Virus record (IMG/VR): IMGVR_UViG_3300020037_004263
Length of the DNA stretch: 64,000 bases
Direction: 5' to 3' (one strand)
DNA from: an uncultured virus (IMG/VR IMGVR_UViG_3300020037_004263)
Taxonomy: Duplodnaviria > Heunggongvirae > Uroviricota > Caudoviricetes
Part shown: positions 9,749 through 44,998 of the stretch, one piece after another
How positions within the stretch are numbered: position 1 is the first letter of the stretch
Layout: each line of letters starts with the position of its first letter
The notes under the pieces: generated by a model
What the model saw: only the letters and a program-made list of their open reading frames with translations
Told to the model about the DNA's origin: nothing
Databases searched by the model: none
Made by a program: the position numbers and the translations under genes

Positions 9749-9928
9749 ATGCCAATGACGCGCATCGGTCTGTTCCACGGCGGCAGCGGCCTGGAGGTCG
9801 AGTTCGATGAGACCGAGGCCGGAGAGCGCGTCACCCTTGAAGTCAACGACCAGACCGCCAGCGTCCCGCTCGGCATCCTGTTGGAAGTGCTCGACGCCGC
9901 TGGCATCGGCATGGAGGCATCGGCGTAG
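9749..9928 (+). CDS. Small acidic hypothetical protein
   Basis: Manual ORF MPMTRIGLFHGGSGLEVEFDE...; AGGGG RBS; TAGTG coupling. Confidence 0.55.
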   Translation: MPMTRIGLFHGGSGLEVEFDETEAGERVTLEVNDQTASVPLGILLEVLDAAGIGMEASA

Positions 9929-10197
9929 TGGCCGCCTACACCGACAAGACCGCCAACCGTCCCGTCGAGGCGTGGCTGTTCGACGGCTCGATCGCCTCGG
10001 TCCACGAGTTGATGGCCAGCCACCCCGACGTCTGGTGGGAGCGCGGCGCCATCCGGGTCGGCAGGCGGCAGGGGTCCAGCGCCTCGCTGGTCCCGCCTGG
10101 CCGCTGGATCGTGCGCGACCCCAAGGACAACTCGCTGTCGGCCTTCGAGGCCGGGCGCTTCGACGAGCGGTTCGAGATGTGGAGGGCCGACGTGTGA
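9928..10197 (+). CDS. Hypothetical protein
   Basis: VEAWLFDG...GRWIVRD...FDERFE; coupled on both sides. Confidence 0.65.
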   Translation: MAAYTDKTANRPVEAWLFDGSIASVHELMASHPDVWWERGAIRVGRRQGSSASLVPPGRWIVRDPKDNSLSAFEAGRFDERFEMWRADV

Positions 10198-10775
10198 TGG
10201 ACGAGACGGTCTTTCAGCTCTTGGTCAAACGAAAAGATGCCTTGGAACTCGGGCTGAAACGATATTTCACCGGGAAGCCGTGCAAGAGGGGCCATGTTGC
10301 GGAACGCATAACCAGCAGCAAAGAGTGCATGGGTTGCCTGCCGGAGAAAAACGCCGAGGCGAAGCGTCGACGCCCGAACTGGCACAAAGAGCATTACGCC
10401 AAGCTGATGGCGAAAAACCCTAACATTTGGAAAGAAAAATACGCGGCGGATCCGGATTCGCAAAAGGCACGCTGTGCCAAGTGGTACAAAAAGAACAAGC
10501 ACGTTGCTACCGCGCGGTTGGCGCGTAGACGGGCCGTGTTGCGCAACGCAGCGCCAGGGTGGCTGACGAAAGAAGATCACAAAGCTATCCGCCGCGTGTA
10601 CAAGCAGGCTGCAGAAATGACGAAGCTGACTGGCATTCCGCACGAGGTGGATCACATATACCCGCTGAAAGGCGAGACAATGTGCGGGCTGCACGTCCCG
10701 AGCAACTTGCGGGTTATCACGACCTTCGACAACCGATCCAAAGGCAATCGCCTTAGCCAAGGAGTAGCCGAATGA
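10197..10775 (+). CDS. HNH homing endonuclease
   Basis: YFTGKPCKRGHVAER N-terminus; HEVDHIYPLKG..CGLHVPSNL...N.SK; lower GC than neighbours. Confidence 0.9.
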   Translation: MDETVFQLLVKRKDALELGLKRYFTGKPCKRGHVAERITSSKECMGCLPEKNAEAKRRRPNWHKEHYAKLMAKNPNIWKEKYAADPDSQKARCAKWYKKNKHVATARLARRRAVLRNAAPGWLTKEDHKAIRRVYKQAAEMTKLTGIPHEVDHIYPLKGETMCGLHVPSNLRVITTFDNRSKGNRLSQGVAE

Positions 10776-13261
10776 TCGGCGAAGACGAACTCCCGCAAGG
10801 CGAAACAGTGACGATCGACGTTGACGATACCGGCGTCACGGATACTGACGATGGCGGGGCGTACGTAAAACTTGACGAACCCGAAGGCCGGCAGCGCTCG
10901 GAAGATTTCTACGCGAATTTGAGTCTTGAGATGCCGGAGAGCGAGCTCGACGAACTGAGCACCCGCTTCCTCGACCTGATCACCCAGGACAAGGAGGACC
11001 GCAAACAGCGCGATCTCGCCTACGAGATGGGCCTGCGCCGCACCGGCCTCGGCAACGATGCCCCCGGCGGCGCCCAGTTCGACGGCGCGAGCCGCGTCGT
11101 CCACCCGATGCTCGTCAGCGCGACGGTCGACTTCGCCGCCCGTCTGATGAAGGAGCTGTTCCCTCCAGGCGGACCGGTCAAGGACCTGATCCCCGGCGAT
11201 CTGACCCCCGAGAAGGTCAGGAAAGCGCGGCGCAAGGCCGCGATGATGAACTGGCAGCTCACGGTCCAGTCGACCGAGTTCCGCGCCGAGCTGGAGCAGA
11301 CCCTCACCCAGGTGCCGATGGGCGGCGCGCAGTACCTCAAGCTGGGGTGGGACGAGCCGCGCAACCGTCCGACCGGCCTGTTCGTCGCCATCGACGACAT
11401 GCTGCTGCCCTACGCCGCGACGAGCTTCTACTCGGCGCAGCGTCGCACCCACGTCCAGTACCTGACCGCCCTCGACTTCCGCCAGCGCATCCGCTCGGGC
11501 GACTTCCGCGACGTCGATCTGGCGCCTTCCAGCCTGACCCCCGAGCAGACCGCGGTGGCGCGGGCCAACGACAAGATCGAGGGCCGCGACCCCAGCACCA
11601 TGAACGTGGACGGCCTGCGCAAGGTCTTCGAGGTTTATGCGCTGTGCTCCTTGTCGGTCGATGTCGCCGGCGTCAGCAACTCGGACCGCGACGAGGACAT
11701 CGCCCCCTACATCATCACCATCGATGATACCTCGCGCAAGGTGCTCTCCATCTACCGCAACTGGGACGAGTTCGACGACAGCCGCGAGGAGCTGCACTGG
11801 TTCGCCGAGTTCCCGTTCGTCCCGTGGCGCGGGGCATACCCGCTCGGACTGCCGCACATGATCGGCACCCTCAGCGGCGCCGCCACCGGCGCCCTGCGCG
11901 CCCTGCTCGACTCCGCCCACATCCAGAACACCGCCAGCGGGGTCAAGCTCAAGGGCCTGACCAGAGGCGGCCAGAGCCTCCAGCCGCAGGTCGGCGAGGT
12001 CGTCGAGATCGAGGGCGGCATCAACACCGACGACATCCGCAAGCTGTTCATGCCGATGCCGTTCAACCCGCCGTCCCCGATGCTGATGCAACTGCTGACC
12101 TTCCTCGTCGACACCAGCAACAACGTCGTGCGCACGACCTTCGAGGACATGGCCGAGCAGCGCAGCGACGCACCGGTCGGCACGACGCTCGCCCGCCTCG
12201 AGCAGGCCATGGTCGTCTACCGCGCCATCCACGCCCGGCTGCACGACGGCATGGCGCGGGTTCTGCGCATCCTCCACCGTCTCAACGGCATGTATCTCGA
12301 CGACGAGAACACCCGTGACGAGGTCGGTGAGGAGCTGGCGACGCGCGCCGACTTCGAAGGGCCGATGGACGTCGTCCCGGTCAGCGACCCCAACATCTTC
12401 AGCGAGGCGCAGCGCGTCGCCCAGGCCCAGGCCGTCGCCCAGCGCGCCGATCTCAAGCCGCAGATCTACAACCAGCGCAACGTCGAGGTGCGGATCCTCG
12501 AGACGCTCAAGGTGCCGAACCCCGAGCAGCTGTTGATGCCGGCGATCGAGCCCAAGGAGCAGAACGCGGTCAACGAGAACGTCACCGCGACGCTCGGGCG
12601 GCCGGTCACGGCCTTCCCTGAGCAGGACCACATCGCCCATCTCCAGACGCACATGGCCTACATGATGAGCCCCGCGTTCGGGATGTCGCCGCTGATCGCG
12701 CCGGCCTACCTGCCGGTGATGCTCGGACACATCAAGGAGCACCTCGCCTGGTGGTACGCTTCACAGGTCTTCGAGACCGCCAACCTGGCGATCGACGGCG
12801 ATATCGGCGACGAGATGAGGAAGCTCAAGGGCGACATCCCGGCGCGCAAGGCGCTCGACCGCATGCTCGCCGAAGCCGGGCTGGTTGCCGTCGAGCAGGG
12901 CCAGCAGCAGTTCGGCCAGCTGCCCCAGATCGTCCAGCAGGCGCAGCAACTGCTCCAGCAGCTTGCGCCGCAGCCGCAGGACCCCAAGGCGCTCATCGAG
13001 CAGGGCAAGCTCGCGCTCAAGAGTCAGGAGCTGCAGCAGGACGGCAAGCAGAACACCGAGGACAACGAGATCAAGGTCAGGCTGGAAGAGATGCGGCAGG
13101 AGGGCGAGGACCGCCGCACCGCCGCCGAGCTGGAGACCAAGGTCGCCACGAACGATGCGGACAATGAAATGGCGGCTAACATCGCTGCCGCCGAGATATC
13201 GACTGGTGAGCGGATCGCACAGAGCACAGGGAAGGGATCGAATCCCAATCCGTCGCCGTGA
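10772..13261 (+). CDS. Portal protein
   Basis: 829 aa, follows terL; ASRVVHPML, APVGTTLA and Q-rich coiled-coil C-terminus typical of P22-like portals. Confidence 0.85.
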   Translation: MIGEDELPQGETVTIDVDDTGVTDTDDGGAYVKLDEPEGRQRSEDFYANLSLEMPESELDELSTRFLDLITQDKEDRKQRDLAYEMGLRRTGLGNDAPGGAQFDGASRVVHPMLVSATVDFAARLMKELFPPGGPVKDLIPGDLTPEKVRKARRKAAMMNWQLTVQSTEFRAELEQTLTQVPMGGAQYLKLGWDEPRNRPTGLFVAIDDMLLPYAATSFYSAQRRTHVQYLTALDFRQRIRSGDFRDVDLAPSSLTPEQTAVARANDKIEGRDPSTMNVDGLRKVFEVYALCSLSVDVAGVSNSDRDEDIAPYIITIDDTSRKVLSIYRNWDEFDDSREELHWFAEFPFVPWRGAYPLGLPHMIGTLSGAATGALRALLDSAHIQNTASGVKLKGLTRGGQSLQPQVGEVVEIEGGINTDDIRKLFMPMPFNPPSPMLMQLLTFLVDTSNNVVRTTFEDMAEQRSDAPVGTTLARLEQAMVVYRAIHARLHDGMARVLRILHRLNGMYLDDENTRDEVGEELATRADFEGPMDVVPVSDPNIFSEAQRVAQAQAVAQRADLKPQIYNQRNVEVRILETLKVPNPEQLLMPAIEPKEQNAVNENVTATLGRPVTAFPEQDHIAHLQTHMAYMMSPAFGMSPLIAPAYLPVMLGHIKEHLAWWYASQVFETANLAIDGDIGDEMRKLKGDIPARKALDRMLAEAGLVAVEQGQQQFGQLPQIVQQAQQLLQQLAPQPQDPKALIEQGKLALKSQELQQDGKQNTEDNEIKVRLEEMRQEGEDRRTAAELETKVATNDADNEMAANIAAAEISTGERIAQSTGKGSNPNPSP

Positions 13262-13944
13262 GGGCCGAGCCTGCCCTCCGCGAGGCCCGCGAAAAAGGAC
13301 TCGTGTTTTACTTCACTGGGCGTCCTTGCAGACGTGGCCATGTGGCAAAACGATGGGTCGCTGGGCGTGGTTGCGTTGCATGCGCGCCGGTTAATCAAAA
13401 GAGGCGCTATGATAGCGACCCAGAGTCTTACCTCGAACGCCAACGGCAGTGGCAGAGCGAAAACCGACACGTTACGCGAGGGGCGTCGAAGCGTTGGAAA
13501 GAACAAAACCCGCAGAGAAACAAAGAAGGCTGGGACCGCTGGGCCGCACAAAACCGAGATCATCTCGTCGCCACAGCCCGGCAGCGCTACTTGGAAAACA
13601 GAGACGAAGTCCTAGCTTACAACAAGGTTTGGAACCGGAAAAACCCAGGCGCGCGAAATGCGCTTACTCGAAAACGAGGCGCAGATAAGCTCCGGGCTGT
13701 TCCGCCTTGGTTGACAGAGCAGCACTACGAACAGATCAAGCTCGTCTACGTGGAGGCCCGACGGCTCACTGACGAGACAGGCGTGTCTCACCACGTAGAC
13801 CACATCTTTCCGTTGCGCGGGCGCAACTGCTCAGGGCTGCACGTTCCTTGGAATTTGCAGATACTGACAGCTTCTGAAAATTCACGTAAAAGGAACAAAG
13901 TGCCGGCCGATCGGTGGGCGCTCGCTTTCAAGGAGCATTTTTGA
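13258..13944 (+). CDS. HNH homing endonuclease (paralogue of 10197-10775)
   Basis: YFTGRPCRRGHVAKR; HHVDHIFPLRG..CSGLHVPWNL..N.RK. Confidence 0.9.
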   Translation: MRAEPALREAREKGLVFYFTGRPCRRGHVAKRWVAGRGCVACAPVNQKRRYDSDPESYLERQRQWQSENRHVTRGASKRWKEQNPQRNKEGWDRWAAQNRDHLVATARQRYLENRDEVLAYNKVWNRKNPGARNALTRKRGADKLRAVPPWLTEQHYEQIKLVYVEARRLTDETGVSHHVDHIFPLRGRNCSGLHVPWNLQILTASENSRKRNKVPADRWALAFKEHF

Positions 13945-18130: not shown

Positions 18131-18135
18131 GTGAT

Positions 18136-18170
18136 TGACGCATTCAACTCTTGTAATTACAAGAGTCAGT
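18136..18170 (+). promoter_or_regulatory. Putative leaderless promoter overlapped by a perfect 20-bp palindrome
   Basis: TTGACG-N17-TACAAG-N7-ATG; actcttgtaattacaagagt at 18147-18166. Confidence 0.55.
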
Positions 18171-19745
18171 ATGCCGTCACCCAAACCTTTGTCGCTTGAA
18201 GCTGTCACCGCCAAATTCCCGGCCGAGACGCTTGCCCGCTACGATTTCAGCGGTGCTGTCTACACCGGCGCGCTCAACCGGATCACAGGCATCCGATGCC
18301 CTGAGCACGGGGAGTTTTCGCAGTACCCTTCACAGCTGCGCAAAGGCGGCTCAGGCTGCCCCCGGTGCGGACACGATCTCCGGGGCCAGAACAAGCGCAT
18401 CACCCAGGACGAAGCCATCTCCAAGGCGGTGGCGCTGCACAACGGTTTCTACAGCTACGAGAAAACGGTCTACACGATCGGCCACGAGAAGATGACCGTG
18501 ACGTGCCCGCTGCATGGCGATTTCAGCGTGCTGGCGATTAACCACATCTACGGCGGCCGAGGCTGCCCGACGTGCGGCGCGGCCAAGCGTGGGCATCGGT
18601 TCACCGGCGCGAATACCGCAGTGAGGTCGGGTCCGGTGATGATCGCCAAGCATGCAGCTAAGTTCGAGGCGCAGGCTCGAGAGGTCCACGGCGACAAGTA
18701 CGATTATTCACAGGTCGACTACAAAGGCCGGAAGACGCACGTAGCTATTCTGTGCCCCAAGCACGGACCTTTCCAGCAGACCCCGGATCGCCATCTGTCG
18801 CGCGAACACGGCTGTCCCGAATGCTCGCACCACCTTTCCAAAGGCGAGGCGCAAATCAAGGCGTTCATGTCGATATTCGCGCAGATTGATTCCCGGCGCA
18901 GAGATATCGTCAAGCCGAAAGAGCTCGACATCTACGCGCCTGAGCACGCGCTCGCGGTAGAGTACTGCGGCGAGTACTGGCACGGCGCTGAGACGGCCGA
19001 AAAGGAAAAAGACGCAGAAACCCGGCATATCGACAAGATGCGCGCTTGCGAGGCGCGGGGCATTCGTTTGCTTACGGTGTTCGAGAGCGATTGGCTGCGC
19101 CGACCACACGCAATCCGGCGGCTCATTCGTAACGCCCTCGGCAAAGGTCGTGGCAAGGTCATGGCTCGTAAGTGCCAGCCGGAGAAGGTTGCGCACGCCG
19201 AGGCCGTGGCGTTCTTTGATCGTTACCACCCACAAGGTGGTTCGGGTCACGGCGTGTACTACGGGCTGCGGTACGGCGGAAAGCTGGTTGCGTGCATGCG
19301 CTTCACCTTTGGCGGCAACGACCGTGGTCCGAACAAGGAACGTCAGTGGACGCTCAGCCGCTACGCGACGCGCATCTCTGTCGTTGGTGGTGCCTCGCGG
19401 CTGTTGAGCGCCTTCGTTGAAGATTTTGATCCGTCACTGATCAAATCGTTCTCTGACAATCGCTACTTCACCGGCGCGATGTACGTACAGCTAGGTTTCG
19501 ATCTGGATGCCGAGCTACCACCGGAGTATCAAGTCTACCACATCAAAACAGGGCTTTTGCCCAAGGCCGCTTGGCAGCGACGGGAGATACCAGCGCGTAT
19601 CGCCCAGTTGGGGTCGAAGGAAACCTTCGATCCAGACCCTGAGAAAGACAGCCGGACAGAGACGACGATGACCTACCTGCTCGGGGCTCGGCGCGTCTAC
19701 GACTGCGGCAAAAAACGCTGGATCTGGCGCAAGAAACCCGCTTGA
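18171..19745 (+). CDS. Hef-like homing endonuclease (three Zn-ribbon repeats, nuclease domain, GNAT/Mom-like C-terminus)
   Basis: Three CPxHG.F...GCPxC repeats; ELDIY...AVEYCGEYWH; VVGGASRLL...SFSDNRYFTGAMY...GF; VYDCGKKRW. Confidence 0.75.
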   Translation: MPSPKPLSLEAVTAKFPAETLARYDFSGAVYTGALNRITGIRCPEHGEFSQYPSQLRKGGSGCPRCGHDLRGQNKRITQDEAISKAVALHNGFYSYEKTVYTIGHEKMTVTCPLHGDFSVLAINHIYGGRGCPTCGAAKRGHRFTGANTAVRSGPVMIAKHAAKFEAQAREVHGDKYDYSQVDYKGRKTHVAILCPKHGPFQQTPDRHLSREHGCPECSHHLSKGEAQIKAFMSIFAQIDSRRRDIVKPKELDIYAPEHALAVEYCGEYWHGAETAEKEKDAETRHIDKMRACEARGIRLLTVFESDWLRRPHAIRRLIRNALGKGRGKVMARKCQPEKVAHAEAVAFFDRYHPQGGSGHGVYYGLRYGGKLVACMRFTFGGNDRGPNKERQWTLSRYATRISVVGGASRLLSAFVEDFDPSLIKSFSDNRYFTGAMYVQLGFDLDAELPPEYQVYHIKTGLLPKAAWQRREIPARIAQLGSKETFDPDPEKDSRTETTMTYLLGARRVYDCGKKRWIWRKKPA

Positions 19746-23737: not shown

Positions 23738-23979
23738 TGACTTTCACCCGCGCGAACCTCACCAGGATGACACGAGGCGGCGCACCGTCCCCCACTCCGC
23801 CCGAGGTGCTCGGCCTGCTGCCTGACGCCGCGCTCGGGGTCAGTTATCTGTCTTCAGGGGACGTCACCATCTTCGGCGGCACGGGGCCGTTCACCGCGTC
23901 CCTCAGCGGCCAGCCTTCGGGGCTCAACGTCACTGTCTCGGGCCGCGATCTCATCTTTGACTGGAGCAATCCGGCGTGA
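23737..23979 (+). CDS. N-terminal part of an Ig-like (He_PIG-type) domain
   Basis: LPDAALGVSY...IFGGTGPFTASLSGQPSGL pattern; stops before the final strands. Confidence 0.6.
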   Translation: MTFTRANLTRMTRGGAPSPTPPEVLGLLPDAALGVSYLSSGDVTIFGGTGPFTASLSGQPSGLNVTVSGRDLIFDWSNPA

Positions 23980-26900
23980 CGGACATGCTCGACCCGCTAC
24001 TCGCCTACCGCGACCGGTTCGCTGCCGTAGGCGAGGCTCCGATCGACTTGACGGACCTGGTCCCCGAGAGCTTTCTGACCCCTACCAGCTGGGCCATCAC
24101 CGCCGGCAATGCGGCGGGCGACTGGACCCTGTCGGGCAGCACGATCGACTTCAGCGTCGCGGGCGCGGCGGCGGACATGCCGAACAGCCCGTACACGCTG
24201 ACGATTCAGGCGACATGGGCGAGCCTTCCTGCGGCCTACCAGACGGCCTCGACCACCGTTACCGTCATCTGCCCCGCCGATACGCGCTACGTCGATCCTG
24301 CGGGCGGCTCCGATGCCGCGGCAGGCACCAGCAAGGCGGCGGCCTGGACCCACGCCACGGGCGACCCCAACGCTACGGGCAATGCGGCCTCCTTCTCGCC
24401 GTCGGTCCTCACGCTGATCAGCATCAAGGGCGGCACGACACAGATCCGCAGCAACTATGTCGCGCCGTCGAACAACAACATCGTCTATGCCTCCAGTATA
24501 GGCTGGGGAACGGGCCGGGCCATACTCTCGGGCCTCGATCTGCTTCCGGCCGGCACCGCAGCGTCCAGCGGGGAGGCGTTCGCCAACCCCTTCCTCGCCA
24601 GCATCAACAAGTACAGCCTCGGATATGCGTGGCAGTCCGGGCAATATCTCGTTGACAACGGGCAACTGATCTTCCCGGCGCAGTGGCCTGCGTCCGGCAC
24701 CGACCCGCTACTCGACAGCCAGGACCCGAACCGGCAGCTCACGGGCGGCATGTACCGCTACCCGGCGACGGAAGTGATAAACTTCGGTACGGCTTCCACC
24801 ACGATCACCGGCACGGCGGCAGCGGCTATCCTGGCGGCGTTCCCGACCGGGAAAAGCACGGTCGGCTATGTCGTCTGGCATTGGGTGGTGCCCAACGAGG
24901 TGCAGCCCTTCGTGATCACGGCGCACAACGTGGCGACGGGGCAGATCACCTTCGATACGTCCAGCGAGGCAACGACCAGCAACCTTCAGTTCGGGACATC
25001 GGCCACGCCGGCGCAACCCGCAAACGGCGACAGCGTGGTCGCGGCCGGCAAGACCTACACGTTCAAGACCGTACTCGACACCGGCGACGGCACCATCCTG
25101 ATCGGGGCTACCGTAGCCGACACGATCGGCAATTTCGTCGCCGCGGTGAACCTGGCCGCCGGCGCGGGCACGAAGTACGGCAGCGCCACCACGATCAACC
25201 CGTCGCTGAGCGCGAGCGTCAACGGCACCTACCGCGCGCTGATGCAGATCAAGGTCACCGGGACGTCGCTGAACAGCGTTGCTCTGTCGATCGGCGTCGG
25301 CACGATCCTGACGTGGTCCATCGCTACGATGGTCAGCGGGGTTCAGGAGGTCAACGGGACCACCGCGTTCCAGATCGTCGGACACCCGTGGTCGATCGGT
25401 GCGGCCAACCAGTTCGCCGGGAAACCGGGCGACACCTATGTCCTGGCCTGGCTATCGGACGGCGTCGCGCCCGAAATCCTCACGCGCAAGATCGGGATCA
25501 CCGCGAACAGTCCCTCCTCGCTCGGAGCCTACGGACTCCTGATCCAGGGGTACTACAACGATACCGCGAGCGCGGAGGGCGCCGGCATATCGGTCAGCCG
25601 CTCCAGCAATTTCACCTATAATTTCGCGAATAACGAGATCAAGTGGCTGGTCAACCACGCGACCAAGAGCGGGGGTATCCGAACGGTCGGCTCGGGCACG
25701 GCGACCTCCAACCGCCTTGATCGCAACTACATCCACGACAGTGTCCGGGCCAGCGGTATCCGGTATTCCTGCGCACAAACCGATGGCATCCAGGCGGTCA
25801 AGAACCGCGTCGAGCGCCTCACCCGCACCGGCATCTACATCGTCAACATGAAGAACAGCCTGGTTCAGGGCAACAAGCTGGTCTACATCATCAGCGCTCA
25901 TGGCAACGGCTTCACGTTCTACCGGACCGGAGTATATGTCCCCGACAACAACACGATCCAGTACAATTACACCGAGAACGTCATCCGCCCCCTTACCAAG
26001 GACGCCCACGCCAACTCTTTGTTCACAGGCAACATCTTCGAATCCGACGAACTGAACAACGACCCGGTTCGCGCTTACGGCAGCTATTCGACCGATGTCT
26101 GGTCCCGCAACATGTGCATGCGCTATCGAAATAGCGCGCTCACCGGCACCTACTCGATGAATTTCGGCCTGGGCGGCGGCGGGGCCTGTCCCTACTCGAA
26201 CAATGTCATCGACGGGGTCGTTCTCCAGTCCCCCTACGCCGCGGTGGGCACCGCCAATCTCATTACCAACGCCGTTGCAGGAACAGGAGCCGACGACGCT
26301 CTGGTCAACGGGATAAGCGACCAGATCGGCGGCCTGGGCTCGGACAACGTGTATTCTCCCTATCTGTGGGACGGCACGATCACCGCGCCGATGAAGAACC
26401 AGCTCGGTGTCGGCCGGATCGGCAACCAGCTCATCTACTCGATCGCGTCGGTATTTTTCCCGCCGCTCGCCAACCAGACGGTCTCGACCCTCGTCACGTC
26501 GGCCATGGCTCTGGTCGATACGCCCGATGCCACGAGGCCGATCAGCGTCAGCGGTGCGGGCAGTCCGCAATGGCGACAGGCCGACTACCCCGGCGGCGGC
26601 AATCCCACGGCTTGGACGTCGTCATCCGGAACGATCGACACCACGAAATATCTGCAGGTCCGCCAGACGACGTCGGCGAGCAACGAAACAGAGCAAACCG
26701 CGTCGATCGACCTTGGCGACGGCAACGTCTCGACCTGGACCGCGACGACCCTGAAAGCCAAGGACGTCCCGTGGGTCGCGATCAACACCAGCGATACATG
26801 GAACACGACATCGCAGGGCATCGCCGCCGACAGCCAGCTCCTGACGATAGCACTGAAGTTCAACTTCTCCGCCGCGCCAGGCTCGGCGGCTCTCATCTTC

Positions 26901-27863
26901 GGGCCGACTGCCGGCTCGCTGTATCTCCGGGTCCAGACCCTGGTAAGCGGGGGCGTTGGCGGCCTGAGATTCACGTTTCGCAATTCGTCCAACGTGACCA
27001 TCTGCCAATTCGACCTGGCGGCGCAATTCACGGTTGGTCAGGACTACGACGTTCAGGCGACGGCGGATCTCACTCAGCCCAACAGCACCGCCGGTCTGCG
27101 GGCCTTTATAGGCAGTTCGGCCGCCACGATTTCCGTTCTGACCTTCACGTCTGGCGCCACCATCGCCTTCAGCGGAGCCGCCGTCTACAAGTTCGGGAAC
27201 CTCAACCTCAACGCCGGTTTCGGGATGCTCTACCTGAGCAATCGTTGGGTCGATATCACCGATCCCGATATCCGCGAGCGGTTCACCAATGGACGCCGTC
27301 TCGGGCCGAACGGCGAGAACGTCGATGGCACGGCTCCGGCGATCCTGCTCCTTGGAACCGAGGCGCAATGGGAGGCCGGCGGCGGGATCAACCGCGGCAC
27401 ATCGGCCATGAAGTTCGTCCCGCAGGGCGGCACTGATGTGACGCCGGTTGCCGGTACGGTGACGACCTGGCCGTACTACACCTACGCAACAGCGCTAACC
27501 ATCACCTCGCCGGCCGATATCGAGCTCGGAAACTCGGCGGCCTTTACGGTCGCGACCGACGGGGCGACGGCCAACAACATCAGTGTCACCGTCAACGATG
27601 GAGCCCAAAGCGGGACATTCAACCCGGCGTCGCCGATCGTTCTGGTCAACGCCGACGCTCCTAGCCTGAGCTTCAGCTACACCCCTGCCCTGGGCGGCAA
27701 CAAGACGATCGCTGCCAGCGCGTCGGGATTGACCGGGGCTTCCGACGTCCTCGGGGTGACGCTGCCGCCGGTGGCCGTCACCTACACGTTCGACCTGACC
27801 GTAACGGATACCTATTCAGGACTTCCGACTGTCGTCCAGCGCAGTTTGACGGTGAACCCGTAA
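23976..27863 (+). CDS. Tailspike or polysaccharide depolymerase-like protein (parallel beta-helix plus lectin/Ig-like domains)
   Basis: RYVDPAGGSDAAAGTSKAAAW entry motif; Asn-ladder repeats (NNEIK, RNYIHD, NNTIQYN); 1295 aa. Confidence 0.75.
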   Translation: MTDMLDPLLAYRDRFAAVGEAPIDLTDLVPESFLTPTSWAITAGNAAGDWTLSGSTIDFSVAGAAADMPNSPYTLTIQATWASLPAAYQTASTTVTVICPADTRYVDPAGGSDAAAGTSKAAAWTHATGDPNATGNAASFSPSVLTLISIKGGTTQIRSNYVAPSNNNIVYASSIGWGTGRAILSGLDLLPAGTAASSGEAFANPFLASINKYSLGYAWQSGQYLVDNGQLIFPAQWPASGTDPLLDSQDPNRQLTGGMYRYPATEVINFGTASTTITGTAAAAILAAFPTGKSTVGYVVWHWVVPNEVQPFVITAHNVATGQITFDTSSEATTSNLQFGTSATPAQPANGDSVVAAGKTYTFKTVLDTGDGTILIGATVADTIGNFVAAVNLAAGAGTKYGSATTINPSLSASVNGTYRALMQIKVTGTSLNSVALSIGVGTILTWSIATMVSGVQEVNGTTAFQIVGHPWSIGAANQFAGKPGDTYVLAWLSDGVAPEILTRKIGITANSPSSLGAYGLLIQGYYNDTASAEGAGISVSRSSNFTYNFANNEIKWLVNHATKSGGIRTVGSGTATSNRLDRNYIHDSVRASGIRYSCAQTDGIQAVKNRVERLTRTGIYIVNMKNSLVQGNKLVYIISAHGNGFTFYRTGVYVPDNNTIQYNYTENVIRPLTKDAHANSLFTGNIFESDELNNDPVRAYGSYSTDVWSRNMCMRYRNSALTGTYSMNFGLGGGGACPYSNNVIDGVVLQSPYAAVGTANLITNAVAGTGADDALVNGISDQIGGLGSDNVYSPYLWDGTITAPMKNQLGVGRIGNQLIYSIASVFFPPLANQTVSTLVTSAMALVDTPDATRPISVSGAGSPQWRQADYPGGGNPTAWTSSSGTIDTTKYLQVRQTTSASNETEQTASIDLGDGNVSTWTATTLKAKDVPWVAINTSDTWNTTSQGIAADSQLLTIALKFNFSAAPGSAALIFGPTAGSLYLRVQTLVSGGVGGLRFTFRNSSNVTICQFDLAAQFTVGQDYDVQATADLTQPNSTAGLRAFIGSSAATISVLTFTSGATIAFSGAAVYKFGNLNLNAGFGMLYLSNRWVDITDPDIRERFTNGRRLGPNGENVDGTAPAILLLGTEAQWEAGGGINRGTSAMKFVPQGGTDVTPVAGTVTTWPYYTYATALTITSPADIELGNSAAFTVATDGATANNISVTVNDGAQSGTFNPASPIVLVNADAPSLSFSYTPALGGNKTIAASASGLTGASDVLGVTLPPVAVTYTFDLTVTDTYSGLPTVVQRSLTVNP

Positions 27864-37914: not shown

Positions 37915-39590
37915 TGGCGTACTCGCCGGAGACCCAGGCTTACATCGACCGGATCAATGCCTACGCCGACGAGATGAGCGGCAAAGGTTACACGGTCAAC
38001 AAGCACGCCGTCGCCGGGCCGGAAGGCGAGGACCCCTACGCCAATCTGATCCGCACCGGCGTCGATCCCAAGAGCCTTGTCGATGTCGGCCACACCTTCC
38101 TGACGAACAAGGGCAACCGCGCCGACTACAAGAGCCAGAGCGGCGTTCTCTGGGCCAACCCCGACGCGCAGTACCACATCACCAACGAGCACGGGAAGGA
38201 CAAACTGCTCTACAGCGGGTCCGGGATCGAAGGTCTCGATCAGGTCTACGCCATTGCGCAGGAGCTTTCGAAGTCCGGCGGCAAGAAAGCCAACTGGGGC
38301 GTTGAGATGTACGACCCGGCGAGCGGACAGTGGGTGCGCTCGGCCGAGGACAATCCTTCGAAGAACCTGCTCGGCAAGATCGCCGACTTCGCGCTGCCGC
38401 TGGCTGGCGCGCTGCTCATGCCGGTTACGGGCGGATTGTCCGGGGCGTTGGCCGCAGGGCTCGGCGCGGCGGGCGGCTCGGCCCTGTCTGGGGTCGCGCA
38501 GGGCAAGAGCATCGGCAACATCCTCAAGGGCGCGGCGCTATCGGGCGGCTTGTCATACCTTGGCGGTTCGGCGCTGGGCGGCCTCGGCGGAGGTTCGGGC
38601 GGAGCCGCTTCTGGAGCCGGGGCAGGCGCGGCGGGAGGCGTCGGAAGCGCCGCGGGCTCGGCGCTAGGCGCGCTTCCCGGCGATATCGTCGTACAGGGCC
38701 TCAAGGGCGGTCTCGGCAGCGCGGTGGGAGGTGCCTTGGGCGGAGCGGCTGGCGGCGCTGCTGCAGGGGCCTTGGGTGGCTCCGGGGCGCTCCCGAACGA
38801 TATCGTCGTGCAGGGCGCGCGCGGCCTCGGGCAGTCGCTGCCCAACGCTCTGGGCAGCATCAGCGGCGCTGCGCTGACCGGGGCAGCCAACCAGCTTGGT
38901 GGCAGCGCGGCCAACAACGAGATCGTCGTCGAAGGGCAGAAGCCCCTCGTGCCCGAGAACTTCACGCTCACCCCCGAGATGCTCGCGTCGCTCGGCATCA
39001 CGACCGAGTTCGCGGCGACGCCGCAGGGCAAGTCGACCGTCGACAAGATCATCAGCGGTCTTAAAGCGGCGGGGCTGCTCACCGGCCTCGTCGGTAACGC
39101 GATCGGCGGAGGCGGCAAGAGCGGCACCGGGACGGTGCCCGGCGCGCTCGGCAACCTCAACCCGATCTTCTCGAAGACGCTGCCGACCACGAACATTCCG
39201 GGGGGCGTCGGCACCGCGGCGAACTTCGCGCCGCGCCAGATGCCCGAGCAGGACTGGAATCGCTACGCGATGCATCCCGAGCAGTCGTTCTTCAACTACG
39301 TGCCGCAGCGCTACACGCCGCCGGTACAGGCGTTCGCCAAAGGCGGCATGGCCGTCAAAGGCAAGGGCACCGGCCGCAGCGACGAGATCGACGCCAAGCT
39401 GTCCGACGGCGAGTACGTCGTCGATGCGGAGACGGTCTCGCTGCTCGGCGACGGGTCGAGCAACGCCGGGGCCAAAGCTCTCGACAACCTGCGCGTCGCC
39501 GTAAGGAAGCACAAGGGCCGCAGTCTGGCCAAAGGCAAGTTCAGCGCCAAGGCGAAGCAGCCCGAGCGCTATCTGGGGGTACGCAAGTAA
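37914..39590 (+). CDS. Putative DNA ejection (internal virion) protein, Gly-rich
   Basis: Gly/Ala hydrophobic segments; C-terminal FAKGG..GTGRSDEIDAKLSDGEYV motif; follows the tail hub. Confidence 0.7.
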   Translation: MAYSPETQAYIDRINAYADEMSGKGYTVNKHAVAGPEGEDPYANLIRTGVDPKSLVDVGHTFLTNKGNRADYKSQSGVLWANPDAQYHITNEHGKDKLLYSGSGIEGLDQVYAIAQELSKSGGKKANWGVEMYDPASGQWVRSAEDNPSKNLLGKIADFALPLAGALLMPVTGGLSGALAAGLGAAGGSALSGVAQGKSIGNILKGAALSGGLSYLGGSALGGLGGGSGGAASGAGAGAAGGVGSAAGSALGALPGDIVVQGLKGGLGSAVGGALGGAAGGAAAGALGGSGALPNDIVVQGARGLGQSLPNALGSISGAALTGAANQLGGSAANNEIVVEGQKPLVPENFTLTPEMLASLGITTEFAATPQGKSTVDKIISGLKAAGLLTGLVGNAIGGGGKSGTGTVPGALGNLNPIFSKTLPTTNIPGGVGTAANFAPRQMPEQDWNRYAMHPEQSFFNYVPQRYTPPVQAFAKGGMAVKGKGTGRSDEIDAKLSDGEYVVDAETVSLLGDGSSNAGAKALDNLRVAVRKHKGRSLAKGKFSAKAKQPERYLGVRK

Positions 39591-41341
39591 TGGCGCTCAC
39601 CGATTTCCTGACCGAAGGCGCGCAGATCCCCGCAGGCTCGGCGGTCAAGTCGATCACCTCCCAGACGGTGCTGCCCGACTGGTACACCAACTATGCGATG
39701 GACATCCTGTCGGGGCAGCAGGCTATCGCGGGCAACCCCTACGCGACGTACCAGGGGCCGCGTGTCGCCGACTTCACGCCGATGCAGCAGCAAAGCTTCC
39801 AGCAGGCCCAGCAGGCGGCGGGAGCCTACCAGCCCGGTCTCGACAAGGCGACGGCGGCAACACAGAGCGCCTTGGGCCAGAACGGCGCGTCCGCCGCGCA
39901 GCCCTACTTCAACCAAGCCGTCGGGCTCAGCCCGCTGGACGCCGGTCAGGCCGACTACAACGGCGCGCGAGGCAGCATTGGGGCGGCGACGGCGATCAAC
40001 CCCGGCACGATGGCACAGCCCTATTACGGCGCTGCGCTGTCGATGAACCCGTCGGTCTCGGCGGCGGGCGACTACGGCGCCGCGCGCGGCACGATCGGCT
40101 CGGCGCTGAGCTACAACGCACCGGGCGCGGCGCAGCCTTACTACGGTCAGGCCGGCAGCATGAACGCGCTCGGTGCGGCACAGCCGTACCTGAGCGGCGC
40201 TGGCGGCTACGCCATGCAGAGCACGACCGGCGACGGCCTCTCCGCCGCGATGCCGTGGCTCAACGCCGCTTCGGGCAGTGTCGCCAACGTCGGCGAGTAC
40301 ATGAACCCCTACGAGCAGGACGTGGTCGATTACATCGGCCAGCAGGGGACGCGCAACCTGCGCGACACGATCATGCCCGCGCTCGAAGGCCGCTACATCA
40401 CCTCGGGCCAGTTCCGCGGCAGCGGGCAGCTCACCGACACGATGCGCGCCGTGCGCGACACCTCGCAGGACATCCTCGGTCAGCAGGCGCAGTTGCGGCA
40501 GTCGGGCTACATCAACGCGCAGAACCAGAAGGGCAACGACCTGAGCCGGTACGGTCAGCTCGGCTCGACAGCGGGCAATCTCGCGGTGCAGCAGCAGCAG
40601 GCCGTCGCCAACGCGGGCAACATGCTCGCCAACATCGGCGCGACAGCAGGCAATCTTACCGCCGGTCAGCAGCAGCTGCTCGCCTCGATGGGCACCAATC
40701 TGGGCCAGCTTACGCAGGGCCAGCAGCAGGGCGCGCTGTCCGCCGCGAACCAGATGGCGGGACTGGGTGCGTCCGAGGCGGGCATGACACAGGCCCAGCA
40801 GAACCTGCTGCAGGGCATCGGCACCCAGACGGGTCAGTTCGGTGCCGGCCAGCAGCGGACTGCGCTTGATGCCGCCAGCCAGCAGGCTGCCCTCGGTTCG
40901 ACGATGTCGGGTCTCTCGCAGGCCCAGCAGAACCTGCTGCGCGGCATCGGCGGCGATGTCGGCGCGCTCACCGGCAGCGACGCCTCGCGCTCGCTCGCCG
41001 GCGGTGCGCAGCTCGGCAACCTCGCCGGCCTCGCCCAGCAGTACGGCATCACCGGGGCCAACGTGCTCAACCAGGCGGGCTCGCAGCAGCAGCAGCTCAA
41101 CCAGCAGAGCCTCAACACCGCCTACGAGGACTTCCTGCGGCAGCAGGGCTACCCGCAGCAGCAGATCGACGCGATGCTGGGCTCGTTCAAGGGCGTGGCG
41201 ACAGGCGTGCCGTCGGCGACGCAGGAGTACGGCGTCGTGCCGTCGGGCGTCCCGGCCGAGTACAAGCCGTCGACCGCATCCAACATCGCCTCCGGGCTCA
41301 CCGGCGCTGCGGGCATCATCGACCTGCTCAAGGGTCTGTAG
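39590..41341 (+). CDS. Putative DNA ejection protein (Gln/Ala-rich helical repeats)
   Basis: YQGPRVADF, YMNPYEQDVV, AYEDFLRQQGYPQQQ motifs. Confidence 0.7.
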   Translation: MALTDFLTEGAQIPAGSAVKSITSQTVLPDWYTNYAMDILSGQQAIAGNPYATYQGPRVADFTPMQQQSFQQAQQAAGAYQPGLDKATAATQSALGQNGASAAQPYFNQAVGLSPLDAGQADYNGARGSIGAATAINPGTMAQPYYGAALSMNPSVSAAGDYGAARGTIGSALSYNAPGAAQPYYGQAGSMNALGAAQPYLSGAGGYAMQSTTGDGLSAAMPWLNAASGSVANVGEYMNPYEQDVVDYIGQQGTRNLRDTIMPALEGRYITSGQFRGSGQLTDTMRAVRDTSQDILGQQAQLRQSGYINAQNQKGNDLSRYGQLGSTAGNLAVQQQQAVANAGNMLANIGATAGNLTAGQQQLLASMGTNLGQLTQGQQQGALSAANQMAGLGASEAGMTQAQQNLLQGIGTQTGQFGAGQQRTALDAASQQAALGSTMSGLSQAQQNLLRGIGGDVGALTGSDASRSLAGGAQLGNLAGLAQQYGITGANVLNQAGSQQQQLNQQSLNTAYEDFLRQQGYPQQQIDAMLGSFKGVATGVPSATQEYGVVPSGVPAEYKPSTASNIASGLTGAAGIIDLLKGL

Positions 41342-41350
41342 GAGGGGCTG

Positions 41351-42151
41351 GTGGCAACGATCTCACAGGATGGCTGGCAGCGGATGCTCGAAGCGCTCGG
41401 ACCGGATAAGGCCGAGCAGTGGCGCGTCCAGCAGGGCATCGAGGTAGAGACGCCGCAAGCGTTGCCCGACGCCGGTGCCGAGACGCCGATGGGCGCGTTG
41501 TCGCAGCCGACGACGGCGCAGAACCCGGACTCCAAAGCAGGCTTGTTCGCCCTGCAACGGGAACTGGCGCAGACCAATACCGAAGATCGCGACTACCAGC
41601 GCCGCCGATTCGAGGAAGGGCGCGCTCGCCTCGAACGAGAGCGCACAGGGCCGTCGACGGCTGAGCAACTATTCCGTCTTTCTGCCGCTTTCGCTCAACC
41701 GCAGCGCTACAAGGGCTTCGGCGGGATGATGGCCAACGTCGCTCCGGTGCTGGGTGATATGGCAGCAATCCGGGAGCGTGCTGGTACTGATCGCGCGGCG
41801 GCGTTGGAGAAGCTGCAGGAGCAGTACATGACCGGCGACTTCGCGGCGCGGCGGCAGGATATAACAGGCCGACTCGGTATCCAGAAGACGATAGCGGAGA
41901 TGGAGAAGCCTAAGGCGCGGCGCACCGGGATCAGTCCGGTGGATGGTTTGCTCTATGATCTCGACACCGGCGAAGTCATTCCGTTCAAACAGGCTGGTGC
42001 CAACGGCGGGGCCAACCTACCGGTCATCTCGTCGCCCGAGGAGGCGCGCAAGCTGGCTCCCGGCACCACGTTCCGCACTCCAGACGGCAGAATCAAACGG
42101 GTTCCCGGAGGTCCGACGCAGTCTGCGTCGGGCGGCTTTCCCGGCGGTTAG
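41351..42151 (+). CDS. Putative ejection protein, probably extended by frameshift
   Basis: GGAGG RBS; helical; ends with LAPGTTFRTPDG...GGPTQSASGGFPGG. Confidence 0.75.
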   Translation: MATISQDGWQRMLEALGPDKAEQWRVQQGIEVETPQALPDAGAETPMGALSQPTTAQNPDSKAGLFALQRELAQTNTEDRDYQRRRFEEGRARLERERTGPSTAEQLFRLSAAFAQPQRYKGFGGMMANVAPVLGDMAAIRERAGTDRAAALEKLQEQYMTGDFAARRQDITGRLGIQKTIAEMEKPKARRTGISPVDGLLYDLDTGEVIPFKQAGANGGANLPVISSPEEARKLAPGTTFRTPDGRIKRVPGGPTQSASGGFPGG

Positions 42152-42512
42152 CGGCAACGATCTCGACCACATCACGATGATGTCCGAGAGCGCGGGCAAC
42201 CCGAACGCGGTCAGTCCCAAGGGCGCTCGCGGACTGATGCAGGTCATGCCCGAGACGGCGCGCGATCCCGGCTTCGGTATCCGCCCCTCAAACGGCACGC
42301 CGCAGGACGATGTGCGCGTCGGGCGCGAGTACCGTGCTGCGATGCGGCGGAGGTACAACGGCAATCTGCCGCAGATGTGGTCGGCCTATAATGCCGGGCC
42401 GGGGCGTACCGACGCGTTGATCGAGAATTACGGCGACGACTGGCTGCGCTACGCGCCGGCAGAGACACAGGCTTACGTTGCGCGCAACATGCGCGCCGTC
42501 AGGAGGAAGTGA
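42138..42512 (+). CDS. Lytic transglycosylase (SLT) domain with no evident start of its own
   Basis: SESAGNPNAVSPKGARGLMQVMP, AYNAGPG, ETQAYV. The start coordinate given is the proposed frameshift site. Confidence 0.85.
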   Translation, partial: FPAVSGNDLDHITMMSESAGNPNAVSPKGARGLMQVMPETARDPGFGIRPSNGTPQDDVRVGREYRAAMRRRYNGNLPQMWSAYNAGPGRTDALIENYGDDWLRYAPAETQAYVARNMRAVRRK

Positions 42513-44998
42513 TGGCCGTAGATCCTTGGGCTGAGTTTGAAGACGTGCAGCCGTCTGCGCCGCGCCCGACGCTCAAGGAGCGCGACATCATGGCTGGCAT
42601 CGACCAGAGCGGTGCGAGCGCGGCGTCGTCTGCTGCCAGTGCTCGGCGCTCGGACACGCTGCTGCCTGCCGACGCTGAGAAGGCTGCCGCGGAGGCTCGC
42701 AAGCTCCAACTCGAAACGGAGAAGCTGGAGCGCGAGGCCGCCCAAGGCCCTGCGCTGACCGGCGACAAGCGCGCCGAGCTCAAGGACACCTTGACGTCGC
42801 TCAAGCAGTTCGAGAACGATCTCGGGCTGTTGGAAACCTCGTTCGACAAGAACTTCGAGGACCAGGGCCTTGCAACGCCCCGCGAGTATCTGCCGGGGAT
42901 GCTCAGTCCGACCAACCAAGCGTACAACGCGGCCTCGAACCGACTGCTCCCGCTCGTGGCCCGCGCCCTCGGGTTTACGTCCAAACAGATGGACACGCCG
43001 TCGGAGATCGAACGGCTCAAGTCCTATGTGCCGACGAACACCGACTCGGACCAGACTGCTCGCGAGAAGCTCACGGCACTGCGCGGCATGCTTGATCGCC
43101 AGCGCGAGAATGCAGCGACGCAGCTCGGGCAAGTAGCGCCGGGAGACGGTGAACAGCCGCCTGCCGTGGCCGGAGCGGTAGATATCGGCGCCGGTCCTAC
43201 GCTCCCCGGCGCGGACGGCGGAGGTAACATAGTACCTCCGGCAGGACCGACCCCTCCGCAGTTCTCTCCGGGAGATCCGCAGATGCAGGCGGCGACCGGC
43301 GACACGCGCCGCGTCGCGGACCCGCAGCTTCAAGGTCAGATGGACGCCATGCTGCGGCAGGGCGCGTCGTTCAGCGACATCAACGCTTTCGCGATGAGCA
43401 AGGGCGCGGAACCGATCAACCGGCAGCAGTACCTCGCGGTGCGCAACTTCCTGCGCAAGAACCCCAACTACGAGGGCAGTCTTGTCGACGTCAACCGGTA
43501 CGAGCCGGTTTCGCTTTTCGAGAAGAATGTCACTGCGGTCGGCAACAACTCGGGCGGGTCCTACCTGCTCGGCGCGGGTCAGATGCTGTCGGCCAACACA
43601 CTCGACGATCTCGCCGCTGATCCGCAGCGAGCCAACCTTGCGCTGGCGATGGCCCAGGCACAGAGTCCGACGGCTACCGGCCTTGGGCAGATGAGCGGCG
43701 CGACCTTGGCAGCGCTCTCAGGGGAGGCGGGCCTTGCCCGCCTCGGTATGGCTCCGGGCCTTGTGCGCGGAGCGCTGGCCGACGTCGGCATGGGCGCGGC
43801 TTCAGGTGCTGGTGCAGCCGGGGACGGCGACCGGGCGATGGGCGCGCTGCAAGGTGCTGGTTACGCAGGTCTCGGCAGCGCCGGCGGCAGCGCGCTCGGC
43901 GCGGGACTACGGCGCGTCGGGACAGGTGTCGCTGATCCTTCGGTACACGCCATGGCCGCCGAGGGCGTTCCGCTGACCATCGGGCAGGTCTATGGCCAGT
44001 CCGGTCTCCCCGGTCGCATCGTCAAGGGCATCGAGGACCGCATTGAGGGCTTCCCGTTCATCGGTGCCGCGGTCAACGCGCGTCGTCGCGGCGGCTACGA
44101 CGTCTTCAACACCAAGACGTTCGAGCGTGCGCTCAAGCCGATCGACGGCAGTGTCGGCGGCAAGGTCGGTGAGGATGCCGTGCTGGCCGCGCAGGGCCTT
44201 GTGGACGCCGCTTACACCAAGGCGCTGGCGGGTAAGGTGGTTCAGATCGACAATCAGTTTGCGAGAGACCTGTCGCAAGCTGTCACCAAGGTCGCTGGAC
44301 TGAGCCGGGTCGGGCCGGAAGTGTTGGAGGACGTCAAAGCTGTCTTCGATCCGTTCAAGACCGGTTCGACGTTCACCGGTCCAGAGATGCAAATAATCAA
44401 ACGCGATCTTGAAAAGATCAAACGCAACTACCGTAACGACCCAAGGGGGGAAGCCGTCAGGAAAGCAGTCGACGAAGTGAAAGACGCTGTATTCGGCATA
44501 TTCCGCCGACAGACGCCGGAGGTGGTCCCTGACTACCAAAAGGCCGACATGGCCTATCGCAGGCTCTCAACGGTCGAGGACGCCGTGCTCGCAGGCAAGA
44601 ACACCAAAGGCAAATTCACCCCTGCGCAGCTCGGGACGGCCGACAGGGCGTCAACTGTCAAGTTCGAGGGCAAGCGCGCAGCGGCGCGTGGCGACAGTCC
44701 GTTCCATGACTTCCAGCGCGACGCGCAGAACGTCCTGCCGAACGAGGTGCCCGACAGCGGCACTGCGGGACGTCTGGCGGCGGGCATGCCTGCCACGGCA
44801 GCTGGGCTGACGCTGGCGGGCATTCTCGGCGCGGCTTACACCAAGGCCGGGCAACGGCTCCTGACCAAGCCCGGTCGCGGCGTCGAGAACGAGATGCTGA
44901 AGAAGGCGCTTACCGACGAAAGAACCCGCCTACTGCTCGGTAAAGCGGGAGCAGGAACCGGGGCGGCTCTCGGGCTGGGAACATATCCCGGCCCGTGA
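42512..44998 (+). CDS. Large putative ejection (internal virion) protein
   Basis: DPWAEF N-terminus; GVPLTIGQ; VPDSGTAGR; last gene of the virion operon. Confidence 0.7.
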   Translation: MAVDPWAEFEDVQPSAPRPTLKERDIMAGIDQSGASAASSAASARRSDTLLPADAEKAAAEARKLQLETEKLEREAAQGPALTGDKRAELKDTLTSLKQFENDLGLLETSFDKNFEDQGLATPREYLPGMLSPTNQAYNAASNRLLPLVARALGFTSKQMDTPSEIERLKSYVPTNTDSDQTAREKLTALRGMLDRQRENAATQLGQVAPGDGEQPPAVAGAVDIGAGPTLPGADGGGNIVPPAGPTPPQFSPGDPQMQAATGDTRRVADPQLQGQMDAMLRQGASFSDINAFAMSKGAEPINRQQYLAVRNFLRKNPNYEGSLVDVNRYEPVSLFEKNVTAVGNNSGGSYLLGAGQMLSANTLDDLAADPQRANLALAMAQAQSPTATGLGQMSGATLAALSGEAGLARLGMAPGLVRGALADVGMGAASGAGAAGDGDRAMGALQGAGYAGLGSAGGSALGAGLRRVGTGVADPSVHAMAAEGVPLTIGQVYGQSGLPGRIVKGIEDRIEGFPFIGAAVNARRRGGYDVFNTKTFERALKPIDGSVGGKVGEDAVLAAQGLVDAAYTKALAGKVVQIDNQFARDLSQAVTKVAGLSRVGPEVLEDVKAVFDPFKTGSTFTGPEMQIIKRDLEKIKRNYRNDPRGEAVRKAVDEVKDAVFGIFRRQTPEVVPDYQKADMAYRRLSTVEDAVLAGKNTKGKFTPAQLGTADRASTVKFEGKRAAARGDSPFHDFQRDAQNVLPNEVPDSGTAGRLAAGMPATAAGLTLAGILGAAYTKAGQRLLTKPGRGVENEMLKKALTDERTRLLLGKAGAGTGAALGLGTYPGP

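Follow-up and report, generated by a model that had tools for sequence, protein, structure and literature searches.

A Conserved Shine-Dalgarno-Hairpin-UUUY Cassette in Phage Sequences Is Very Probably a Programmed +1 Frameshift Signal Leading into Cell Wall Hydrolases

The window, which is the whole 64,000-nt stretch analyzed here (uncultured virus, IMG/VR record IMGVR_UViG_3300020037_004263), derives from a tailed phage. It has terminase, portal, and capsid genes at 6.4 to 18 kb, lysis and virion-structural genes at 32 to 38 kb, and a replication module on the opposite strand from 45 kb. Related elements occur in Sphingobium faniae and a Sphingopyxis MAG, which makes a sphingomonad the probable host. 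The portal gene has Endonuclease VII-like ORFs on both sides, and the 304-aa capsid ORF is followed by one of the HNH type (9807 to 10775, 13258 to 13944, and 18135 to 19745); these are possible mobile endonucleases or introns. The ORF at 23976 to 27863 encodes a Thr/Ala/Gly-rich protein of 1,295 aa with no PHROG match, which is probably a tail fiber or spike. A second, weak match to the Shine-Dalgarno (SD)-hairpin-TTTC detector, at 25610, falls inside this ORF and was dismissed as chance. The cassette described below lies at the end of the structural module, between genes of 266 and 828 aa (Table 1).

Table 1. Features at the cassette locus (positions in the window)
Feature	Position	Strand	Remarks
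Preceding gene, 583 aa, Gln/Gly/Ala rich	39590..41341	+	Context only; no family match
Upstream gene, 0 frame, 266 aa	41351..42151	+	GTG start; AGGAGG at 41340-41345
Internal SD-like GGAGGU	42107..42112	+	In-frame Gly-Gly; read from the sequence
Hairpin abutting the SD	42113..42131	+	Arms 42113-42120 and 42124-42131, 3-nt loop; extendable to 42111-42133
Spacer, 5 nt	42132..42136	+	First two bases G-Y; last three are the E-site codon
Proposed +1 shift site UUU_C	42137..42140	+	Phe in both frames
0-frame stop TAG	42149..42151	+	Three sense codons past Phe
+1-frame SLT (soluble lytic transglycosylase) domain, 124 aa	42138..42512	+	Pfam PF01464; Glu codon 42186-42188
Next gene, 828 aa	42512..44998	+	ATG overlaps SLT stop (TGATG); AGGAGG at 42501-42506

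The clustering of the 583-, 266-, and 828-aa genes after the virion-structural genes and before the replication module is the layout of podophage ejection genes of the P22 gp20/T7 gp15 type. Judged by its position, the 583-aa product is probably the first ejection protein. The 828-aa product is probably the largest one; its atlas lead, P22 gp16 (PF26808), scores 0.82, below the bar. The 266-aa protein matches no Pfam or PHROG family, its atlas lead (PF16928) is likewise below the bar at 0.79, and its relatives match only PHROGs of unknown function. Gene position, these sub-bar leads, and the analogy to T7 gp16 suggest that it is a probable ejection (internal virion) protein, of which the 266-aa chain would be the short product. 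The +1 frame, open from 41895 to 42512, by its family match encodes a full SLT domain (E = 5e-17, 62 bits against a cut-off of 21.3), with a predicted lytic transglycosylase activity. The catalytic Glu is invariant in 21 aligned members, and the family profile matches Slt70 and T7 gp16 in the PDB (E = 8.5e-6 for T7 gp16).

The sequence-only reading of this locus had described an SD, a hairpin, a spacer, a UUU_C, and a TAG at the junction of the two frames, and every element was found base for base where it had been placed. Its claim that a slip at 42137 enters the SLT frame also stood: reading TTTC as one step joins the two frames without a stop, giving 386 aa instead of 266 aa. The whole RNA signal is 34 bases. 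The SD lies 24 nt from the UUU in linear distance and 5 nt once the hairpin is looped out, and the stem can extend into the SD by two further pairs (42111-42112 with 42132-42133), so that 3 nt remain ahead of the UUU. Taken alone, the local fold of the window lies within the range of chance (96 nt; z = -1.2; as good a fold in 29 of 200 shuffles), and Rfam covariance models run on 41800 to 42600 gave no matches at E values up to 10. The case rests on conservation.

The cassette, GGAGGU followed by a hairpin, 5 nt, and UUU-pyrimidine, was found in 138 distinct phage-like sequences (distinct 52-nt contexts, pooled), most of them retrieved with patterns that required the SD, the stem letters, and TTTY, and with relatives that are not independent. 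Loss of the signal in homologues had been named as grounds for abandoning the reading, and close homologues retrieved by their proteins keep it. First, a search with the SLT protein gave 37 loci, of which 27 were examined; all seven of the closest (64 to 100% identity) combine a purine-rich SD with a hairpin, 5 nt, TTTY, and the same frame switch, and the remaining 20, mostly internal domains, have no cassette. Second, alignment-based searches gave 106 further loci, and a script whose sole criterion was TTTY at the frame switch picked 35 candidates. All 35 have a GGAGG and a stem of varied sequence, and the GGAGG is 27, 30, or 33 nt before the UUU in every one, although no SD criterion was used. 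In 39 protein-retrieved loci, the enzyme frame closes no more than 145 codons upstream. The cassette is present in 34 of them; four of the other five have their own ATG and one has a -1-type site. The remaining 67 of the 106 are mostly ordinary fusions (about 62 of the 106 are ordinary internal domains). Third, all 32 homologues of the upstream protein (a set that includes the one in the window) carry the cassette peptide GG-x7-9-F at their C terminus, in 31 cases no more than 3 residues from the last one; four of the 32 were matched mainly through the C terminus. In locus L144 (1153 to 1165), a 385-codon ORF ends in G_GGA_AAG plus a stop, followed by a predicted stem and a start-less SLT in the -1 frame, apparently a -1 route to the same kind of fusion.

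An assembly error or a recently broken gene might also produce such a junction. In-frame versions exist, namely the ordinary internal domains above and eight inverted loci described below, but the same break at the same motif occurs in more than 100 distinct sequences. The indel that the sequence-only reading had wanted checked did not appear either: the junction is identical in two other IMG/VR contigs, and a contig from run X1, which may be the sample that the window came from, covers 41994 to 42212 with 0 differences and 0 gaps. The chance of such an artifact is therefore negligible, and recurrence refutes it. Another contig in this run (record 4) matches only the 39-nt cassette (42104 to 42142) and then diverges, and is thus another carrier. 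One further run, presumed to be RNA, has no coverage of the site.

The DNA pattern sets required the motif and so show its range, not its conservation. The class-1 pattern matched 58 viral loci, with a gap of exactly 5 nt in all 58 although 3 to 9 nt were allowed. All 58 matches end a long 0-frame ORF, and the enzyme is in the +1 frame in 52 and in frame 0 in six. The class-2 pattern matched 18 loci. A metagenome scan gave 67 cassettes, 49 of them new (43 standard, six cut by contig ends, and none inverted). The upstream ORF ended by the signal is 180 to 400 codons long, and a stop follows within 5 codons of the Phe in 75 of 83 standard cassettes. As a control, 401 genomes of the Sphingobium host's family gave 19 loose-pattern matches, and only two of these, the ones with a -12 kcal/mol stem, show the layout of a long ORF, a near stop, and an SLT in +1. 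Among cultured phages, the best of the SLT matches examined (Caulobacter JessA) is a domain inside a 758-aa gene that is not split, and two further matches lie in annotated unsplit genes; no cultured carrier was found in the three records examined, out of 217 and 7 matches, and blastn of the cassette against cultured phages gave two chance matches only. No in-frame fusion was found for the window's own upstream subfamily, nor, as weak evidence, any longer fused form of the upstream protein among 8,000 candidates.

The SLT frame of the window is open from 41895 and offers ATG or GTG codons at 41943, 41955, and 41997, a CTG at 42123, and ATGs at 42177 and 42180. The sequence-only reading had claimed that the frame lacks a start linked to a ribosome-binding site and that its nearest ATGs are only 2 to 3 codons before the catalytic Glu, and both claims held. 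The three upstream codons have no GGAG, GAGG, or AGGA 4 to 16 nt before them; the ATGs at 42177 and 42180 precede the Glu codon (at 42186) by 3 and 2 codons, and a start there would remove the helix leading to the Glu. No canonical enzyme start is conserved across loci: an SD-led ATG, GTG, or TTG occurs somewhere upstream in the enzyme frame in 23 of the 83 standard loci and is missing in 60, eight of the 83 have no ATG, GTG, or TTG at all ahead of the first conserved enzyme motif, and the open upstream length of the enzyme frame ranges from 10 to 187 codons. In several loci with an NNPG-type enzyme, the conserved motif begins 1 to 3 codons past the TTY, which leaves no room for a downstream start. 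Two loci (L005 and L006) do have an ATG 11 to 12 nt past the SD, but this type of ATG lies within the stem, where it alternates with ACG as a compensatory pair. Initiation of the SLT at a start of its own (41943, 41955, 42123, or 42177/42180) is thus highly improbable.

Further analysis of the RNA showed constraints on the spacer, the stem, and the distances between them. Across the 138 cassettes, position -5 is G in 134 and position -4 is a pyrimidine in 134. T, which at -1 would create a -1-prone run, is absent there from all 138. The fourth base of UUUY is T in 14 cassettes, and in 11 of these the next codon is a stop. The A-site codon is mostly a sense codon starting with C (CCC in the window) and is a stop in six of 90 cassettes. 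GGA makes up 290 of 2,200 Gly codons in the upstream ORFs. Two classes of stem were distinguished. In class 1, a 7-bp stem represented by 22 protein-retrieved rows (21 of them distinct), 98.6% of positions are paired and six of seven pairs show compensatory changes; in class 2 (8 bp, mostly with a GNRA loop; 18 rows counted), 100% are paired and all eight pairs are compensatory. The class-2 alignment used 19 of 22 rows, three having been dropped as repeats of a 34-mer, and 13 were protein retrieved. In both classes the covariation score was reached by none of 500 shuffles, statistics that are inflated by relatedness of the rows, and slid controls were 20 to 70% paired. A synonymous-shuffle test gave a median z of -3.2, a value of little weight, since a stem was already a condition of detection and this biases the test. 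Hairpin length varies from 16 to 23 nt, with the SD always abutting the 5' arm and the 3' arm constantly 5 nt from the UUU. The last G-U of the SD can pair with the spacer G-Y in 21 of 21 and 20 of 21 rows, a pairing that is compatible but cannot covary. For the window, the zipped form was computed at -17.9 kcal/mol and the SD-free form at -13.8 kcal/mol; pairing of the SD with the anti-SD was computed at -8.7 kcal/mol for six bases and -3.7 kcal/mol for four. This means that the two states are close in energy. A nascent-peptide signal was also considered and is unlikely because the encoded peptide varies except for Gly-Gly and Phe.

The enzymes behind the signal vary as well. The 58 class-1 cargoes comprise 27 SLT, 22 M15_3 (one of them weak), and nine with no Pfam family, eight of which match PHROG 873 (internal-virion endolysin); the M15 cassettes come from DNA patterns only. 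The SLT, peptidase M15, and NNPG-type families are unrelated and all begin at the TTY. Judged from these family assignments, the wall hydrolases behind the signal are interchangeable. The next gene begins on the enzyme stop or within 6 nt of it in 78 of 88 loci, with TRATG in 51 of 88, which suggests that the enzyme frame is translated to its end. As extra cargo of the cassette, a domain of about 90 aa with no Pfam or PHROG match accompanies the SLT or M15 in L239, L278, L081, and L071; it follows either the shift site directly or the SLT. Short motifs (for instance, TATNP...W.P) precede the cassette in some phages and stand at the N terminus of the next gene in others (e.g., L197 and L202), and are possibly a sorting tag. 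A within-genome match between the pre-cassette motif and the phage's own next-gene N terminus failed (20.0 for own versus 21.2 for others, n = 85).

We consider it highly likely that the cassette directs a programmed +1 frameshift in which tRNA-Phe slips from UUU to UUY, giving the 266-aa and 386-aa forms. The two ORFs overlap at a UUU codon whose tRNA can re-pair in the +1 frame, and the site and its stimulators are conserved at the RNA level. We infer the slip, the roles of the SD and the hairpin, the ratio of the forms, their location in the virion, and the enzyme activity. Ribosomes would translate the 266-aa gene as far as the UUU at 42137, and with peptidyl-tRNA-Phe in the P site, the freshly unwound hairpin would refold behind the ribosome. 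Looping out of the hairpin would place GGAGGU 5 nt from the P codon, and zipping two pairs into the SD would bring its end to 3 nt, adjoining the E-site codon. The resulting strain may allow tRNA-Phe to let go of UUU and pair anew with the overlapping UUC. Ribosomes that shift would append the 123-residue transglycosylase (386 aa in total) and finish where the next gene starts, those that do not would terminate 3 codons on, at 266 aa, and the phage would package a mixed population of one virion protein in which only a fraction carries the wall-cutting domain. UUU_Ynn is +1 prone in bacteria, and +1-stimulating SDs are known to sit 3 nt from the shift site (PMC5009743). Upstream hairpins adjacent to the E site stimulate +1 shifting in 70S extracts and yeast (PMC6321510, PMC3639245), an effect that in PMC6321510 needed an empty A site (no RF2), whereas the A site of the cassette mostly holds a sense codon. 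Bypassing of the hairpin would likewise land in the +1 frame, since skipping 19 nt does so, and the class-1 hairpins of 16, 19, and 22 nt are all 3n+1. But this length already follows from keeping the 0 frame open, class-2 hairpins span 20 nt, there is no matched landing codon, and conservation of UUUY would be unneeded. We regard bypassing as a very slight possibility.

The eight distinct inverted loci (L044, L047, L067, L074, L076, L081, L186, and L109, the last found by eye) keep the signal but have the enzyme in frame 0, and all three enzyme families are represented. In all eight, a +1 stop lies 1 to 4 codons past the Phe. In the matched-frame control of standard loci, a stop within 4 codons was seen in four of 83, and the background is 0.13 per position. 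These stops are not relics, since a one-base deletion would put the old stop in the -1 frame, which has no stop within 19 codons in six of the eight. Trees need three polarity changes in M15 and one or two in NNPG, although counting strongly supported branches alone, one origin per family remains compatible. With three to five origins and this background, it is unlikely that the +1 stops arose by chance. Comparison of these sequences favors a +1 event and suggests that both products are under selection.

The inverted loci also bear on two other explanations. UUY is a very poor start codon. It could nevertheless serve in a split ribosome-binding site, with the hairpin looped out and the enzyme initiated separately at the UUC/UUU, de novo or by re-initiation after the nearby 0-frame stop; an SD, a hairpin, and 5 nt are the geometry of T4 gene 38, where 22 nt are reduced to 5 (PMC3014915). 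We consider this very unlikely. The codon is UUY preceded by U in all protein-retrieved cases, no AUG, GUG, or UUG was seen at the site even though UUG is one change away, and neither the inverted loci nor their +1 stops would be explained. Alternatively, the hairpin could stimulate RNA polymerase to slip and drop one mRNA base, as in Roseiflexus IS630, which has a stem-loop 5' of its slip site and loses one base (PMC5009743). Together, the spacer and UUUC measure 9 nt, close to the length of one RNA:DNA hybrid. Against this, there is no homopolymer run, just 3 to 4 T after a mixed 5-nt spacer; an SD would not be needed; the pyrimidine at the fourth base fits re-pairing of tRNA-Phe instead; and, like the split site, polymerase slippage fails to explain the inverted loci and the SD together. 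Its probability is accordingly very low.

The cassette is thus real and conserved, and is very probably, as far as comparative sequence evidence goes, a programmed +1 frameshift site with an undescribed compound stimulator. A literature search, with most subscription journals outside its scope, found no description of the signal, and a 5' hairpin with an SD appears as a class of +1 stimulator only with a "perhaps" in a 2016 review (PMC5009743). Several known systems share parts of it. Like prfB (RF2), it places an SD within the gene, ahead of a +1 slip in the P site (PMC5009743, PMC3711429), and prfB had been offered as the precedent for the SD. The geometry differs, as the prfB SD is 3 nt from CUU_UGA and its A site holds a stop, whereas the cassette has 24 nt of linear spacing with an intervening hairpin, UUU_Y, a mostly sense A-site codon, and no evident autoregulation. 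A UUU shift site also joins two ORFs in Yersinia YopN-TyeA and in msi172-msi171 (FseA) of rhizobial ICEs; in the passages of PMC5009743 on these, an SD-hairpin cassette is not described, and a nascent-peptide signal is proposed for msi172, whereas the cassette's peptide varies. The SARS-CoV attenuator and engineered 70S constructs show stimulation of +1 shifting by an E-site-adjacent hairpin (PMC3639245, PMC6321510), but in engineered +1 contexts, with a hungry codon or no RF2 and with the hairpin replacing the SD; the cassette is natural, selected, and combines the two. As in the split site of T4 gene 38, a hairpin brings the SD to 5 nt from the P codon (PMC3014915), but the split sites of T4 genes 38 and 25 serve initiation at AUG and the cassette has UUU/UUC and no start codon. 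Listeria PSA, A118, and A500 and T3/T7 gene 10 likewise obtain two virion proteins from a single gene, with an accessory domain on the longer one (PMC5009743); there, CCC or -1 sites add Ig-like domains to capsid or tail proteins, whereas the cassette would add wall hydrolases to a probable ejection protein, with reversible polarity. Finally, T7 gp16 carries an SLT on an ejection protein (PMC8954989), and the SLT of the window is likewise encoded between the second and third probable ejection genes. In T7 it is permanently fused at the N terminus; in the window it would be C-terminal on the preceding protein and optional.

More tentatively, and with considerable doubt, the cassette might be a portable high-efficiency +1 switch working at an efficiency of about one half. 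Hairpin extrusion in the ribosome exit path would let SD pairing be kept, or regained eight codons late, and zipping of the hairpin into the SD would push tRNA-Phe forward without a hungry codon. Because both polarities are used, the slip adding the enzyme in some loci and removing it in others, the efficiency should be near one half. If so, this value would fix how many subunits of the DNA-ejection tunnel bear a wall hydrolase. If the frameshift itself is correct, the cassette would be a natural, selected case in which an SD and a 5' hairpin jointly drive +1 frameshifting, and its 34-nt signal is directly testable in reporters, with natural compensatory variants as controls. The findings also suggest that the annotation of these start-less enzyme ORFs is systematically wrong, and that phages may tune the copy number of wall hydrolases on their ejection machinery.
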